The notes beneath the pieces were generated by a model. That model was not told where the DNA came from. It worked only from the letters and a program-made list of their open reading frames with translations, and ran no database searches. A program made the translations under genes and the position numbers. A stretch of 64,000 nt of DNA from Escherichia coli (GTDB taxonomy: Bacteria; Pseudomonadota; Gammaproteobacteria; Enterobacterales; Enterobacteriaceae), in the NCBI RefSeq assembly GCF_003991155.1, contig NZ_CP031293.1. The stretch is one strand, 5' to 3'. This document shows positions 150-7,050 of this stretch, one piece after another; within the stretch, counting starts at the first letter, position 1; the number at the start of each line of letters is the position of its first letter.

Positions 150-539
150 TTAGCGGGTCGCGTTATAACAGGTCACATCGACTTCAACTTTACAATCGAC
201 AACCAGATCAGCTACACAACAAATACGTGCAGGCGGATTCTCGCCAAAAAATTCTCTGAATACTTTATTAAATGACTGGAAATAGCGGGCGTCGGTCAGG
301 ATCACTTTCACGTGAACCACATCCGCCAGGCTATAACCGGCTTCAGTCATGATGTCGACACAGTTTTGGATCGCCAGTCGTGACTGTTCAACGATACCGC
401 CTTCTACCACTTCACCGTTTTTCATGGGGGTTTGCCCGGAGACGTACAGCCAGCCGCCCGCCTCAACCGCCCTGGCAAACGGCAAATGCTGCCCGCCAGT
501 GCCTGTTCCACCTTCCGTACCGTAACGTTTAATACTCAT
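150..539 (-). CDS. RidA/YjgF-family reactive enamine/imine deaminase
   Basis: ORF track 150..545; ATG at 539 preceded by AAGGAG-like SD; translation MSIKRYGTEGG...CYNATR has the size (~129 aa) and sequence pattern of RidA/YjgF proteins; starts 10 bp after the stop of the upstream deacylase gene (operon-like). Confidence 0.7.
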   Translation of the reverse strand: MSIKRYGTEGGTGTGGQHLPFARAVEAGGWLYVSGQTPMKNGEVVEGGIVEQSRLAIQNCVDIMTEAGYSLADVVHVKVILTDARYFQSFNKVFREFFGENPPARICCVADLVVDCKVEVDVTCYNATR

Positions 540-548
540 ATTCACTCC

Positions 549-1991
549 TTAATGTGAGGTCTGGCGGCGCAGGAAGCGTCCCGCACGGCCTGTAATATGT
601 TTATCGGGACCATAGCTCATAACGCCGTTCACCATCACCGCCTCAATGCCATCTGCCGGGCGTTTGGGATCAGAAAAGCTGGCAACATCACGAATGGTTT
701 GTGGATCGAACAACACCAGGTCCGCAAAATAGCCGACTTTCACCAGCCCACGCTGAGGCAGACGAAAACGGCTGGCAGAAAGCCCGGTCATTTTGTGGAT
801 AGCCGTGGTCAGTGGGAATAAGCCTTCATCACGGCAATAGTGACCCAGCACGCGAGGGAAAGCGCCCCATAAACGCGGATGCGGCATGGGATCATTGGGC
901 AGTCCGTCAGAGCCAATCATACTGACCGGATAACTCAACACTCGGCGGACGTCGCGCTCGTCCATGTTGTAATAGATAGCCCCGGCAGGCATCAGCAACT
1001 TCGCGGCCTCCAGCATACTCATCTGCCAGTCGATGGCGATTTGCGCCAGTGTTTTCCCGGCCTGCTGCGGATGTGTTTGTGACCAGGTGATCACAATATC
1101 GAATTCGTCGGTGACTTGTTTGAGATCCAGCGTTGAAGAGCTGGCTGAGTAAGGGTAGACATCGCAGCCAATTTCCTGGTGTTGACGCATTTGGTCAAAA
1201 AAGGCCAACGTTTCTTTTGTCCGCCCCCAGTTTTTCGCCCCGGCGCATTTATGGTGGGAAACCACGACAGGCACTTTGCCATGACGCCCAATACGAAACG
1301 CCTCATCCAGGGCATCGAGAATCGGTTCAAATTCAGAACGCAGATGGGTGGTATAAACGCCCTTCTCACCGGCTAATTCTTCCGCCAGCGCCATGACTTC
1401 TTCGGTAGTCGCCTGAAATGCCGTTGCATAGGCCAGCCCGGAACTTAACCCCAGCGCCCCCTGACTCAACGCCAGACGTAAGTCGGCACGCATAGCGGCA
1501 ATTTCATCCACCGTCGCCGGGCGAAACAGGTCGTCCATATGGTTATTACGCAGCGCCGTATGACCAATCAGCGTGCCAACGTTCAGTGACGGCCTGGCTG
1601 CTTCCACTGCCTGGGCATAGCTTTCAACGGTAGGATAAATAAAGTGCTCTGCTTCCCCCAACAGATTCATCGGGTCAGGAACTTCACCTTTCATTTTCGC
1701 CGACGCCGCACTAATCCCGCAGTTACCGACAATCACCGTAGTGATCCCCTGGCTGATCTTTGGCAGATATTCCGGGATGCGAATAACGTTGATATCGTCA
1801 TGGGTATGAACGTCGATAAACCCTGGTGCCAGCACCCGCCCTTCCCCGTCAATGACCTGCTGCGCCGTAACGTTAAGCGCAGGGGCAATATCGACAATCC
1901 GATCACCTGTTATTGCCACGTCACCGCGAAATTCAGGGCCGCCGCTACCGTCGATAACGGTCACATTTTTGATTAACCAGTCAACCTGCAT
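549..1991 (-). CDS. N-acyl-D-amino-acid deacylase (D-aminoacylase, amidohydrolase-3 family)
   Basis: ORF track 549..2000; likely ATG at 1991 with GGAG SD 8 nt upstream; ~480 aa with metal-binding HTHDD motif near N-terminus and overall D-aminoacylase-like sequence. Confidence 0.7.
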   Translation of the reverse strand: MQVDWLIKNVTVIDGSGGPEFRGDVAITGDRIVDIAPALNVTAQQVIDGEGRVLAPGFIDVHTHDDINVIRIPEYLPKISQGITTVIVGNCGISAASAKMKGEVPDPMNLLGEAEHFIYPTVESYAQAVEAARPSLNVGTLIGHTALRNNHMDDLFRPATVDEIAAMRADLRLALSQGALGLSSGLAYATAFQATTEEVMALAEELAGEKGVYTTHLRSEFEPILDALDEAFRIGRHGKVPVVVSHHKCAGAKNWGRTKETLAFFDQMRQHQEIGCDVYPYSASSSTLDLKQVTDEFDIVITWSQTHPQQAGKTLAQIAIDWQMSMLEAAKLLMPAGAIYYNMDERDVRRVLSYPVSMIGSDGLPNDPMPHPRLWGAFPRVLGHYCRDEGLFPLTTAIHKMTGLSASRFRLPQRGLVKVGYFADLVLFDPQTIRDVASFSDPKRPADGIEAVMVNGVMSYGPDKHITGRAGRFLRRQTSH

Positions 1992-2191
1992 GTTCGTCAC
2001 TCCATTTCTGCAATGGTGACAAGTTAACCATTTACAAGGACGAAAAACAGTGGAAAACTACGCAAAACCCAGATGATTTTATGATACTTTTATTCATAAA
2101 TAATAAGATAAATAAACTAAATATTTATATTTCATTTAGTTACAAATGATACTCACATCCGATACGGTGAAAAACTTAAAAGGTAAATGTT

Positions 2192-3412
2192 ATGAAATAC
2201 CACTCAGAACCTCTGGTTCCCCATAAATCTGCCCTGATGCAAATGCCCGCAAATCTCCTTGCCGAAGATGTCTGTTTACCTGCCGCGATCATTAAAAAGC
2301 AGGCCCTGGAGAACAACATTACGTGGATGCAACGCTACGCTGACGCGCGCGGCGTTTCACTGGCACCGCACGGTAAAACCACCATGACGCCGTGGATTTT
2401 TCAGGCGCAGCAGGCGGCTGGTGCCTGGGCAATAGGTGTCGGTAGCGCATGGCAGGCTGGTGCGGCAATGGCGAGCGGTATTCAGCGAGTGCTGATGGTT
2501 AACCAGCTGGTCGGCAAGGCGAATATGCAGTTGATTGCCCAGTTGCAACGACATTACCCGACGGTCGATTTTATCTGCTGTATCGACAGCATTGAGAACG
2601 CCCGCGCTTTGTCTGCCTTTTTTGCCAGTCAGCAACAGACACTGAACGTGATGATTGAGTTGGGTGTCCCCGGCGGGCGCTGTGGTTGCCGCTCAAGGGA
2701 TGCCGCACTGACACTGGCTAAACAGGCAGCCCAATTACCGGGGTTACGCCTGCGGGGGCTTGAGTTATATGAAGGCGTTTTACACGGTGACGCTCCACAA
2801 CCGCAGGTAGAAGCTCTGCTGCGGGATGCCGCACAACTGGCCTGTGATATGGCAAGTCTGGTTGATGGCGAGTTTATTCTCACCGGAGCAGGCACGGTCT
2901 GGTATGACGTGGTGTGCAATATCTGGCTGGCGGCAGAAAAGCCTGATAACTGCCGCATTGTTATTCGCCCTGGCTGCTACATCACTCACGACACCGGGAT
3001 CTACGACGCGGCACAACAACAGTTGCTTGCCCGTGATCCTGTGGCCTGCGATCTGGCAGGCGATCTCACATCTGCGCTGGAACTGGTCGCCATGGTGCAA
3101 TCGGTGCCGGAAGCTGATCGTGCGGTGGTAAATTTTGGTAAGCGTGATTGCGCCTTCGACGCCGGACTGCCGCAACCAGTCGCCCACTACCGCAACGGCA
3201 AATCACTGGCATTTGATCCACAGGCGATTCGCAGTACAGGTATTATGGATCAGCACTGCATGTTGCAACTGTCAGCTAATAGCGACGTGCAAGTGGGGGA
3301 TATTCTGGTGTTTGGCACATCGCATCCGTGCCTGACCTTCGACAAATGGAAAACGTTGTTATTGACTGATGACGACTACAACGTACTGGCAGAATTAGAC
3401 ACTCTCTTCTAA
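2192..3412 (+). CDS. PLP-dependent alanine-racemase-fold enzyme, D-serine dehydratase-like (DSD1)/D-threonine aldolase family
   Basis: 406 aa ORF with PHGKTT motif (candidate PLP lysine) near N-terminus; divergent from the deacylase/RidA pair; followed by a hairpin terminator. Confidence 0.55.
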   Translation: MKYHSEPLVPHKSALMQMPANLLAEDVCLPAAIIKKQALENNITWMQRYADARGVSLAPHGKTTMTPWIFQAQQAAGAWAIGVGSAWQAGAAMASGIQRVLMVNQLVGKANMQLIAQLQRHYPTVDFICCIDSIENARALSAFFASQQQTLNVMIELGVPGGRCGCRSRDAALTLAKQAAQLPGLRLRGLELYEGVLHGDAPQPQVEALLRDAAQLACDMASLVDGEFILTGAGTVWYDVVCNIWLAAEKPDNCRIVIRPGCYITHDTGIYDAAQQQLLARDPVACDLAGDLTSALELVAMVQSVPEADRAVVNFGKRDCAFDAGLPQPVAHYRNGKSLAFDPQAIRSTGIMDQHCMLQLSANSDVQVGDILVFGTSHPCLTFDKWKTLLLTDDDYNVLAELDTLF

Positions 3413-3416
3413 GAAC

Positions 3417-3451
3417 GCCCCTTCGGTTAATTATCGAAGGGGCATTTTTAT
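3417..3451 (+). terminator. Rho-independent terminator after the DSD1-like gene
   Basis: GCCCCTTCG ... CGAAGGGGC stem followed by ATTTTTATT. Confidence 0.55.
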
Positions 3452-3495
3452 TGTGATCTCAATCACATATCCACCCGACGAATAATTCTTGCCCA

Positions 3496-3523
3496 ACCGC
3501 TCACCGCCATTCCTGACCGCTTA
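3496..3523 (+). promoter_or_regulatory. Putative BtsR (YehT) binding site: direct repeat ACCGCTCA-N12-ACCGCTTA upstream of btsT
   Basis: Two copies of ACC(G)CT(C/T)A about 12-13 bp apart, roughly 160-180 bp upstream of the btsT start; matches the reported LytTR-type BtsR motif in the yjiY promoter. Confidence 0.5.
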
Positions 3524-3679
3524 CATCCCTAAAATAACCACTCAGTTATTTACCTTACTTTACGCGCGCGTAACTCTGGCAACATCACTGCAGGATAGCG
3601 GTCAATTTACCTCCTCAAACGCAACGCAAACCTAGAACGGCTTCGGCCAACTATTAATCAATACATGCCAGGTTTTACT

Positions 3680-5830
3680 ATGGATACTAAAAAGATATTC
3701 AAGCACATACCCTGGGTGATTCTCGGAATCATCGGTGCATTCTGCCTCGCGGTAGTTGCATTACGTCGGGGGGAGCACGTCAGTGCCCTGTGGATCGTGG
3801 TCGCCTCTGTGTCGGTGTATCTGGTGGCTTATCGCTACTACAGTCTGTACATCGCCCAGAAGGTGATGAAACTCGACCCCACGCGCGCGACGCCTGCGGT
3901 TATTAACAACGACGGTCTGAACTATGTTCCGACCAACCGTTACGTGTTGTTTGGTCACCACTTCGCCGCTATCGCCGGTGCTGGTCCGCTGGTTGGTCCG
4001 GTTCTCGCCGCGCAGATGGGCTACCTGCCTGGCACGCTGTGGCTGCTGGCGGGGGTAGTGCTGGCCGGTGCGGTACAGGACTTTATGGTGCTGTTTATCT
4101 CCTCTCGCCGTAACGGCGCATCTCTCGGTGAGATGATCAAAGAAGAGATGGGACCAGTACCGGGGACTATCGCGCTGTTTGGCTGTTTCTTAATCATGAT
4201 CATCATCCTTGCCGTCCTGGCGCTGATTGTGGTTAAAGCCCTGGCCGAAAGTCCGTGGGGTGTCTTCACCGTTTGCTCAACCGTACCGATTGCGCTGTTT
4301 ATGGGTATCTACATGCGCTTTATTCGTCCGGGGCGTGTGGGTGAAGTCTCTGTCATTGGTATCGTGCTGCTGGTTGCCTCTATCTACTTCGGTGGCGTGA
4401 TTGCTCACGATCCGTACTGGGGTCCGGCACTGACCTTTAAAGACACCACCATTACCTTCGCGCTGATTGGCTATGCGTTTGTTTCCGCACTGCTGCCAGT
4501 GTGGCTGATCCTCGCACCGCGCGACTATCTGGCAACCTTCCTGAAAATCGGCGTTATCGTCGGCCTGGCGCTGGGTATCGTGGTGTTGAACCCGGAACTG
4601 AAAATGCCTGCGATGACCCAGTACATTGACGGTACTGGCCCGCTGTGGAAAGGCGCTCTGTTCCCGTTCCTGTTCATCACCATCGCCTGTGGTGCGGTAT
4701 CTGGCTTCCACGCGCTGATCTCTTCCGGTACGACGCCGAAACTGCTGGCTAACGAAACCGACGCGCGTTTCATCGGCTACGGCGCAATGCTGATGGAATC
4801 CTTCGTGGCGATTATGGCGCTGGTTGCTGCGTCCATCATCGAACCGGGTCTTTACTTCGCGATGAACACCCCGCCTGCTGGCCTTGGCATCACCATGCCT
4901 AACCTGCATGAAATGGGTGGCGAGAACGCGCCGATCATCATGGCGCAGCTGAAAGACGTTACCGCACACGCGGCAGCGACCGTCAGCTCCTGGGGCTTCG
5001 TGATTTCGCCAGAGCAGATCCTGCAAACCGCGAAAGACATTGGTGAGCCTTCTGTCCTGAACCGTGCAGGTGGTGCGCCGACGCTGGCGGTAGGTATCGC
5101 TCACGTGTTCCACAAAGTGCTGCCGATGGCTGACATGGGCTTCTGGTATCACTTCGGTATTCTGTTCGAAGCCCTGTTCATCCTGACCGCGCTGGATGCG
5201 GGTACCCGTTCTGGTCGCTTTATGCTTCAAGACCTGCTGGGTAACTTCATCCCGTTCCTGAAAAAAACCGACTCTCTGGTTGCCGGTATCATCGGTACTG
5301 CGGGCTGTGTGGGTCTGTGGGGCTACCTGCTGTATCAGGGCGTGGTCGATCCGCTGGGCGGCGTTAAGAGCCTGTGGCCGCTGTTCGGTATCTCCAACCA
5401 GATGCTGGCAGCCGTAGCGCTGGTACTGGGCACCGTTGTGCTGATTAAGATGAAGCGCACCCAATACATCTGGGTAACTGTTGTTCCGGCTGTATGGCTG
5501 CTTATCTGCACCACCTGGGCGCTGGGCCTGAAACTGTTCAGCACCAACCCGCAGATGGAAGGCTTCTTCTACATGGCAAGCCAGTACAAAGAGAAGATTG
5601 CTAACGGTACTGACCTGACGGCACAGCAGATTGCCAACATGAACCACATCGTTGTGAACAACTACACCAACGCAGGTCTGAGTATTCTGTTCCTGATTGT
5701 GGTGTACAGCATCATCTTCTACGGTTTCAAAACCTGGCTGAAGGTGCGTAACAGCGACAAACGTACTGACAAAGAAACTCCGTACGTTCCAATCCCGGAA
5801 GGCGGCGTGAAGATCTCTTCGCACCACTAA
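3680..5830 (+). CDS. btsT: Pyruvate/H+ symporter, CstA family
   Basis: 716 aa from ATG at 3680 (MDTKKIFKHIPWVILG...); multi-pass membrane protein sequence recognised as BtsT/YjiY; ORF track 3665..5830. Confidence 0.9.
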   Translation: MDTKKIFKHIPWVILGIIGAFCLAVVALRRGEHVSALWIVVASVSVYLVAYRYYSLYIAQKVMKLDPTRATPAVINNDGLNYVPTNRYVLFGHHFAAIAGAGPLVGPVLAAQMGYLPGTLWLLAGVVLAGAVQDFMVLFISSRRNGASLGEMIKEEMGPVPGTIALFGCFLIMIIILAVLALIVVKALAESPWGVFTVCSTVPIALFMGIYMRFIRPGRVGEVSVIGIVLLVASIYFGGVIAHDPYWGPALTFKDTTITFALIGYAFVSALLPVWLILAPRDYLATFLKIGVIVGLALGIVVLNPELKMPAMTQYIDGTGPLWKGALFPFLFITIACGAVSGFHALISSGTTPKLLANETDARFIGYGAMLMESFVAIMALVAASIIEPGLYFAMNTPPAGLGITMPNLHEMGGENAPIIMAQLKDVTAHAAATVSSWGFVISPEQILQTAKDIGEPSVLNRAGGAPTLAVGIAHVFHKVLPMADMGFWYHFGILFEALFILTALDAGTRSGRFMLQDLLGNFIPFLKKTDSLVAGIIGTAGCVGLWGYLLYQGVVDPLGGVKSLWPLFGISNQMLAAVALVLGTVVLIKMKRTQYIWVTVVPAVWLLICTTWALGLKLFSTNPQMEGFFYMASQYKEKIANGTDLTAQQIANMNHIVVNNYTNAGLSILFLIVVYSIIFYGFKTWLKVRNSDKRTDKETPYVPIPEGGVKISSHH

Positions 5831-5879: not shown

Positions 5880-6083
5880 ATGTTTGGTAACTTAGGACAG
5901 GCAAAAAAATATCTCGGCCAGGCGGCGAAGATGTTGATTGGCATTCCAGACTACGACAACTACGTCGAGCATATGAAGACCAACCATCCCGACAAGCCGT
6001 ACATGAGCTATGAAGAATTCTTCCGCGAACGCCAGAACGCACGCTACGGCGGCGATGGTAAAGGCGGTATGCGCTGTTGTTAA
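5880..6083 (+). CDS. yjiX: Small conserved protein YjiX (DUF466)
   Basis: 67 aa [17 protein letters not shown]...GMRCC, directly downstream of btsT as in E. coli. Confidence 0.85.
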
Positions 6084-6093
6084 CGGAGAGAGC

Positions 6094-7050
6094 ATGAACC
6101 CGATTGCAGTTACCCTACTCACCGGTTTTTTAGGCGCGGGCAAAACTACCCTGCTGCGCCATATTCTTAACGAACAGCACGGCTACAAGATTGCCGTGAT
6201 TGAAAACGAATTCGGCGAAGTCTCCGTTGATGATCAACTGATTGGCGACCGCGCCACGCAGATCAAAACGCTGACCAACGGCTGCATCTGCTGTTCGCGC
6301 TCCAACGAGCTGGAAGACGCACTACTCGACCTGCTGGATAATCTCGACAAGGGCAATATTCAGTTCGACCGTCTGGTCATTGAATGCACCGGCATGGCCG
6401 ATCCCGGCCCGATTATTCAGACCTTTTTCTCCCATGAGATTTTATGCCAGCGCTACCTGCTGGACGGCGTGATTGCGCTGGTGGATGCGGTACATGCCGA
6501 TGAGCAGATGAACCAGTTCACCATCGCCCAGTCACAGGTTGGCTACGCCGACCGTATTCTGCTGACTAAAACCGACGTCGCAGGCGAAGCAGAAAAACTG
6601 CGTGAACGCCTGGCGCGCATCAACGCCCGTGCACCGATCTACACCGTCACCCACGGCGACATCGACCTGGGCCTGCTGTTCAACACCAACGGTTTTATGC
6701 TGGAAGAGAACGTCGTCAGCACCAAACCGCGTTTCCACTTTATCGCGGACAAACAAAACGATATTTCGTCGATTGTGGTGGAACTGGATTACCCGGTAGA
6801 TATCAGCGAAGTTTCCCGCGTGATGGAAAACCTGCTGCTGGAGTCGGCGGATAAACTACTGCGTTACAAAGGGATGCTATGGATTGACGGCGAACCTAAT
6901 CGCCTGCTGTTCCAGGGCGTCCAACGCCTCTACAGCGCCGACTGGGACCGCCCGTGGGGCGATGAAACACCGCATAGCACAATGGTGTTTATCGGGATTC
7001 AGCTGCCGGAGGATGAGATTCGGGCGGCGTTTGCGGGGTTGAGGAAGTAA
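6094..7050 (+). CDS. yjiA: CobW/P47K-family GTPase YjiA
   Basis: ATG at 6094 gives 318 aa MNPIAVTLLTGFLGAGKTTLL... with GTP-binding P-loop and CxCC motif; ORF track 6010..7050 extends upstream in frame. Confidence 0.85.
   Translation: MNPIAVTLLTGFLGAGKTTLLRHILNEQHGYKIAVIENEFGEVSVDDQLIGDRATQIKTLTNGCICCSRSNELEDALLDLLDNLDKGNIQFDRLVIECTGMADPGPIIQTFFSHEILCQRYLLDGVIALVDAVHADEQMNQFTIAQSQVGYADRILLTKTDVAGEAEKLRERLARINARAPIYTVTHGDIDLGLLFNTNGFMLEENVVSTKPRFHFIADKQNDISSIVVELDYPVDISEVSRVMENLLLESADKLLRYKGMLWIDGEPNRLLFQGVQRLYSADWDRPWGDETPHSTMVFIGIQLPEDEIRAAFAGLRK

Follow-up and report, generated by a model that had tools for sequence, protein, structure and literature searches.

Three BtsR-type repeats in the btsT promoter of an Escherichia coli strain whose upstream neighbor gene differs from K-12

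In the DNA analyzed here (the window, 64,000 nt of Escherichia coli), the stretch between positions 3452 and 3585 is very likely the btsT promoter with three BtsR octamers, in which R2 and R3 make up the published binding site, R1 acts as an auxiliary one and control of the gene is retained. External pyruvate is sensed by BtsS, which binds it, and BtsR binds the direct repeat in the promoter of btsT, also called yjiY, and activates its transcription (PMC5431176, PMC10653868). In addition, cAMP-CRP is required for expression and CsrA limits translation (PMC5431176, PMC7730263), and the Salmonella btsT is likewise dependent on BtsSR (PMC9504724). An earlier sequence-only reading of this DNA had noticed two short repeats about 12 bp apart, R1 and R2, had taken them as the reported site of the yjiY promoter and had proposed that pyruvate-responsive control was preserved next to a different upstream gene. 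R3 was absent from that reading. The features are collected in Table 1.

Table 1. Features of the btsT promoter region, in window coordinates.
Feature	Position	Strand	Remarks
Intrinsic terminator of the 'amino acid deaminase' gene	3417-3443	+	11-pair stem with 7 G-C pairs, then ATTTTTATTG
CRP-binding core (predicted), TGTGATCTCAATCACA	3452-3467	.	TGTGA-N6-TCACA; conserved across genera
R1, ACCGCTCA	3496-3503	+	Upstream third BtsR-type repeat (predicted); first half of the pair noticed earlier
R2, ACCGCTTA	3516-3523	+	Upstream half of the published YehT/BtsR site; second half of the pair noticed earlier; identical in K-12
R3, ACCACTCA	3537-3544	+	Downstream half of the published site; 13 nt past R2
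TTTACG, possible weak -35	3559-3564	+	15 bp before the -10 hexamer
Extended -10-like element, TGGCAACAT	3577-3585	+	TGnCAAnAT; TG 40 nt after the R3 start; putative
5' UTR (inferred)	3592-3679	+	GGA 3593-3595; conserved TACCTCCTC 3608-3616; UUCG hairpin 3639-3648
btsT (yjiY), pyruvate/H+ symporter, the regulated gene	3680-5830	+	K-12 identity and annotation

The identity of the regulated gene was established by comparison with K-12, since 714 of the 716 residues of BtsT are identical in both proteins. The same region in the chromosome of E. coli ECCNB12-2 is identical and annotated there as btsT, and the first 20 kb of the window show 100% identity to several complete E. coli chromosomes. The list of open reading frames places the start of the gene at 3665; the annotated ATG at 3680 is the one conserved in all species, and the stop codon is included at 5830. 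The repeats had been assigned to the btsT promoter on the basis of the letters, and correctly so: the downstream ORF is btsT and both octamers fit the BtsR/YehT motif.

The three octamers lie on the same strand and each of them is an exact fit to ACC[G/A]CT[C/T]A. R1 and R2 are located 184 and 164 nt 5' of btsT and are separated by 12 nt (3504-3515), or 20 bp from start to start, and a spacer of 13 nt, CATCCCTAAAATA, lies between R2 and R3, giving a step of 21 bp. As 20 or 21 bp make about two helical turns, the three copies are predicted to lie on the same face of the DNA. Sites of LytTR regulators consist of two direct or inverted repeats of 9-11 nt, 11-13 nt apart (PMC4847170). Both spacers of the array fall in this range, and the repeats of the btsT promoter comprise 8-9 conserved nucleotides when position -1, which is 70-80% conserved, is counted.

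Single octamers were not enriched in the 64-kb window when searched as ACCKCTYA (7 found, 5.3 expected). This pattern, with G or T at position 4, misses R3, and with the correct degeneracy at position 4, R (G/A), the pattern ACCRCTYA was found 12 times against 5.9 expected. The phased R1-R2 pair occurred once in the window with 0.02 expected, and the three-copy pattern once with 0.00 expected. No further octamer pairs at 19-22 bp steps were found on either strand of the 64 kb, one mismatch being allowed. The two repeats noticed earlier, with their 12-nt gap, are both present and the pair is far beyond chance.

An alignment with the K-12 btsT promoter had been suggested as a check. Between about 3513 and the ATG it gave a single difference, at 3590, with G in the window and A in K-12 (G or T in other strains). 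In the stretch from the CRP core to R2, at least three unrelated haplotypes were found in E. coli (window/hpa-context, K-12/B2 and O157), and in the 26 nt before R1 the window and K-12 are identical at 6 of 26 positions, counted by eye. In all compared haplotypes, CCGCTCA and the CRP core are retained at an unchanged distance. R1 itself reads ACCGCTCA in the window, in FORC_028 and in O157; GCCGCTCA, with A changed to G at the first base, in K-12, in B2 strains and in E. albertii; and GCCACTCA in one strain, BCE-1. The btsT upstream region was located in 5,383 complete genomes. By a coverage-based estimate, not a base-by-base tally, the window-like allele is present in 2261 and the K-12-like allele in 2633 of 5426 complete genomes, and on this coverage-based estimate roughly half of E. 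coli carries a perfect R1.

Conservation of the array was then examined across Enterobacterales. One btsT locus per species was fetched for 80 species, from Escherichia to Rahnella, Erwinia and Pantoea; 78 of these, together with the window and K-12, were the 80 sequences scanned, the two others having too little upstream sequence. When copies could deviate from ACCRCTYA at one base and follow each other at 19-22 bp, three phased copies were found in 65 sequences, four in 14 and two in 1, that is, three or more in 79 of 80. When the upstream regions were shuffled, none of 4000 reached three phased copies and 24 of 4000 reached two, and the reverse-complement and coding-sequence controls never gave more than one phased copy.

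Multiple alignment revealed as conserved islands the CRP core, R1, R2, R3, ATTTACC..ACTTTACGCGCGCG and TCTGGCAAGAT. The geometry was measured in 70 species anchored on TCTGGCAAGAT, the -10-like element. The distance from the CRP GTGA to R1 was 43 nt (42-44) in 66 of the 70 anchored species. From R1 to R2 the step was 20 nt, sometimes 21, and from R2 to R3 it was 20 or 21 nt, with 22 found once. R3 and the TG of the -10-like element were 38-40 nt apart (40 in 54 species, 39 in 13 and 38 in 3). Information content per position was 1.65 bits in R1, 1.81 in R2, the highest value, and 1.68 in R3, whereas the spacers had 0.47-0.62 and the position that precedes R1 by one step had 0.30; since each repeat position was the best match of four offsets, conservation of R1 and R2 is slightly inflated, with a small bias as the offsets were nearly all 20. 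R1 is as conserved as R3. Its first base is A in 97% of species, and therefore the G of K-12 is the unusual state.

Several Citrobacter species (loci L011, L013, L014 and L020) present a fourth phased copy, CCCACTCA, 20 bp 5' of R1. In a few other genera an extra copy was observed 5' or 3' of the array, so that the array size ranges from 2 to 4 depending on the species. A general fourth repeat 5' of R1 was considered and discarded, since it is found only in a few Citrobacter and relatives and the position has 0.30 bits overall.

The role of R1 is the point on which alternatives have to be weighed. R1 could be no BtsR site at all, being either the eroding remnant of a tandem duplication or a site for another protein (e.g., YpdB/PyrR), in which case only R2 and R3 would matter. 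The literature describes two repeats, and only 74% of species have an A as the final base of R1. Moreover, K-12, with its imperfect R1, shows full BtsSR-dependent induction in the literature, so that R1 is at most auxiliary. The same octamer core, ACCRCT, is however 86-100% conserved in R1 in a fixed register across about 70 species, with adjacent spacers that are nearly random, and R1 is kept in E. coli alleles with unrelated flanks. A different protein is also not the simplest explanation for a repeat that is the same word as R2 and R3. As for YpdB, it recognizes GGCATTTCAT, and a yjiY fragment with GCCGCTCA was the no-binding control in its study (PMC4847170). A site unrelated to BtsR is thus considered unlikely, although it keeps some weight, and R1 as a third, auxiliary BtsR site is preferred. 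Neither a third repeat nor an explicit motif string was mentioned in the full-text literature searched, which lacked the primary 2012 paper and Fig. 3B of PMC5552118. Such a third repeat would be a modest addition to what is already a known system, the btsT promoter controlled by BtsR and CRP.

The YehT/BtsR motif, ACC[G/A]CT[C/T]A in two direct copies, is reportedly given in the abstract of Kraxenberger et al. 2012. PMC4222967, citing Kraxenberger 2012, describes YehT binding to a direct repeat with a 13-bp spacer. Since R2+R3 (3516-3544) is the sole pair with a 13-nt spacer, we infer that it corresponds to the published YehT/BtsR site, rather than R1+R2, which has 12 nt. The R2+R3 pair also gives the degenerate positions of the motif, G/A at position 4 and C/T at position 7. 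An oligonucleotide of the Jung laboratory, 'yjiY YehT bs', reads CCTTTGCCGCTCAACCGCAAAACTG-ACCGCTTA-CATCCCTAAAATA-ACCACTCA-GTTA (PMC4847170). It spans an R1-like octamer, R2 and R3, ends 4 nt past R3 and is arranged like the YpdB oligonucleotide, both sites being near the 3' end; R2-R3 of the window matches it exactly (PMC4847170). The K-12 counterpart of R1, GCCGCTCA, lies 12 nt ahead of ACCGCTTA and is outside the motif.

That the validated BtsR site in the yjiY promoter is R1+R2 is consequently very improbable. Both octamers are exact motif fits and LytTR sites, with spacers of 11-13 nt, would allow their 12 nt (PMC4847170), but the published spacer is 13 bp (PMC4222967), K-12, where the site was defined, does not offer an invariant initial A with its GCCGCTCA, and both the spacer and the degenerate positions are fitted by R2/R3, in agreement with the two sites at the 3' end of the YehT oligonucleotide. 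From the original identification of the noted pair with the reported site, the promoter, the motif and the R2 half-site were right, and the partner and the spacing (12 instead of 13) were not. A different spacing had been named by the sequence-only reading as evidence against itself, and the R1+R2 pair does have one; R2+R3 is intact 20 bp further on. Since R2+R3 is intact and R1 itself is conserved, the conclusion of preserved control stands. A chance intergenic feature without regulatory role in the window strain, which would agree with the lack of enrichment of single octamers, is refuted by the shuffle controls and the conservation of the array (0.02 pairs and 0.00 triples expected, three copies in 0 of 4000 shuffles, array in 79 of 80 sequences).

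Upstream of the repeats, the btsT region presents what is expected of a cAMP-CRP promoter, TGTGA-N6-TCACA at a conserved upstream position, and this is the sole perfect copy in the 64 kb. In a crp mutant, btsT expression is abolished (PMC7730263). Downstream of the repeats, a consensus scan of 3380-3720 gave no standard sigma-70 promoter on the + strand. Cross-genus alignment showed that TTTACG belongs to the conserved block ATTTACC..ACTTTACGCGCGCG, and TCTGGCAAGAT was almost invariant across genera in the multiple alignment. From this conservation, the -35 and -10 elements were tentatively assigned, and transcription would start near 3592.

A sigma-54 promoter at TGGCAA-N5-CTGCA (3577-3592) was evaluated and rejected. 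Sigma-54 promoters have a conserved GG at -24 and GC at -12 and use an AAA+ enhancer-binding activator. K-12 has CTACA, through its single promoter difference at 3590, and Salmonella has CTCCA, so that the GC is missing from both; BtsR, a LytTR regulator, lacks an AAA+ domain, which also counts against a promoter of this type. The sigma-54-like spacing was put down to chance; the motif overlaps the extended -10-like element.

In the 5' UTR, the TACCTCCTC block has the same core as the 16S anti-Shine-Dalgarno sequence. The hairpin, GGC-UUCG-GCC, has 3 bp and is conserved, with one covarying pair, GC in 7 sequences and AU in 5. Translation of btsT is under CsrA control (PMC5431176, PMC7730263), to which the TACCTCCTC block and the UUCG hairpin may be related. 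No RNA family was matched when 3400-3720 was scanned against Rfam at E<=1, and the folding of the whole btsT 5' UTR was no better than that of shuffled sequences (z = +1.0).

An ERIC/IRU-like insertion of about 123 bp (GTGAGTGAATCCCCGGGAGCTTA...AAGTGACAGGGGTGAACGA) was observed in the btsT 5' UTR of some strains, between the UUCG hairpin and the ribosome-binding site. It is carried by E. coli FORC_028, Escherichia sp. E1V33, E. albertii and probably locus L016, and it is missing from the window, where the corresponding position is about 3650-3668, and from K-12. This insertion accounts for the '22-249' class of BLAST matches to the btsT upstream region.

In K-12, tsr lies directly 5' of btsT and is divergent. 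In the window, five genes are inserted between tsr and btsT, coding for an RpiR-family regulator, a sodium:solute symporter, RidA, an N-acyl-D-amino-acid deacylase and a deaminase. The last of them (2192-3412), annotated as 'amino acid deaminase', is on the same strand as btsT, so the earlier remark that the upstream neighbor is unlike that of K-12 was borne out. The intrinsic terminator between this gene and the CRP core would insulate the btsT promoter from deaminase-gene read-through.

The same terminator stems, with another loop, were found 3' of hpaC in E. coli FORC_028. The stems, GCCCCTTC / GAAGGGGC, are thus common to the D-amino-acid-island and hpa-operon contexts and the loops differ, and these shared stems suggest that alternative cargos may have been swapped at the same terminator. 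What lies 5' of btsT (window 150-3412) varies among E. coli, and at least four versions of this junction were seen: tsr directly adjacent (K-12, B2), the five-gene island (window), the hpa 4-hydroxyphenylacetate operon (FORC_028) and a gene for a hypothetical protein of 181 aa (O157:H7).

On the other side of btsT, the yjiA ORF as listed (6010-7050) encodes 346 aa, 28 codons more at its 5' end than the 318-aa GTPase of the annotation, and its beginning overlaps the last part of yjiX (5880-6083). Since the family model aligns from residue 29, the annotation, with the shorter protein, likely has the right start.

Because the sequence from R2 to the ATG is one base off K-12 and 5425 of 5426 complete E. 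coli genomes carry btsSR, the different upstream gene has very probably left control of btsT by BtsS/BtsR and CRP intact. The earlier claim that control is preserved is supported by better evidence than it was given.

A mechanism consistent with these data can be proposed. Phosphorylated BtsR would occupy R2 and R3, and probably R1, all on the same side of the DNA. Acting with CRP, whose site is some 40 bp farther upstream, it would recruit RNA polymerase to a weak core promoter, tentatively made up of TTTACG, a 15-bp spacer and the extended -10 TGGCAACAT. As the third and auxiliary BtsR site, R1 may aid cooperative occupancy or link BtsR to the upstream CRP; it is a perfect match in the window strain and would be weakened in K-12 by the A to G change at its first base. 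The terminator would separate the promoter from the foreign upstream gene, and pyruvate- and CRP-dependent control would thus be retained.

That the btsT control module is kept where another gene cluster sits upstream is of routine annotation value. R1 goes beyond routine: this third repeat matches the published pair in conservation, and the laboratory strain has a degenerate copy of it. If R1 is functional, K-12-based models of BtsR-DNA binding depict only a reduced form of the natural site, and induction of pyruvate uptake may vary among E. coli lineages through a single cis-regulatory base. A broader proposal is plausible, if somewhat short of probable: BtsR would act on a conserved R1-R2-R3 array (four repeats in some Citrobacter) locked at a fixed distance from the CRP site, and not on two repeats as defined in K-12, which would have an atypical, weakened form of the array, and the A/G polymorphism in R1 would tune the strength or timing of pyruvate scavenging by lineage.

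Compared with the YehT/BtsR site of K-12 yjiY (Kraxenberger et al. 2012, J Bacteriol 194:4272), the window has the same gene and promoter, with R2, the 13-nt spacer and R3 identical in every base and the CRP site present. It differs in R1, which is outside the published two-repeat site and is a perfect ACCGCTCA in the window versus GCCGCTCA in K-12, in the haplotype between CRP and R2, and in the upstream gene, which belongs to a D-amino-acid-type island and is not tsr. Promoters controlled by AgrA and other LytTR regulators (agr P2/P3, VirR boxes, ComE boxes) contain direct repeats of about 9 bp with spacers of 11-13 bp, just 5' of a weak core promoter. The btsT array resembles them in its direct repeats and spacers; mostly two repeats have been described for them, whereas btsT has three phased copies (four in some Citrobacter), conserved with a CRP site at a fixed distance. 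YpdB (PyrR) is a paralogue of BtsR in the LytTR family and belongs to the same pyruvate network; it also uses two direct repeats, spaced by about two helical turns, 5' of a single transporter gene. Its site in the yhjX promoter consists of GGCATTTCAT, 11 nt and GGCATTTCAT, so the recognition word is another and there are two sites instead of three, and YpdB does not bind the yjiY fragment (PMC4847170). YpdB occupies its two sites sequentially and cooperatively, according to an 'AB-BA' sequential binding model (PMC4847170), and by analogy this type of cooperative, ordered occupancy may be the best available mechanistic model for BtsR on its array.
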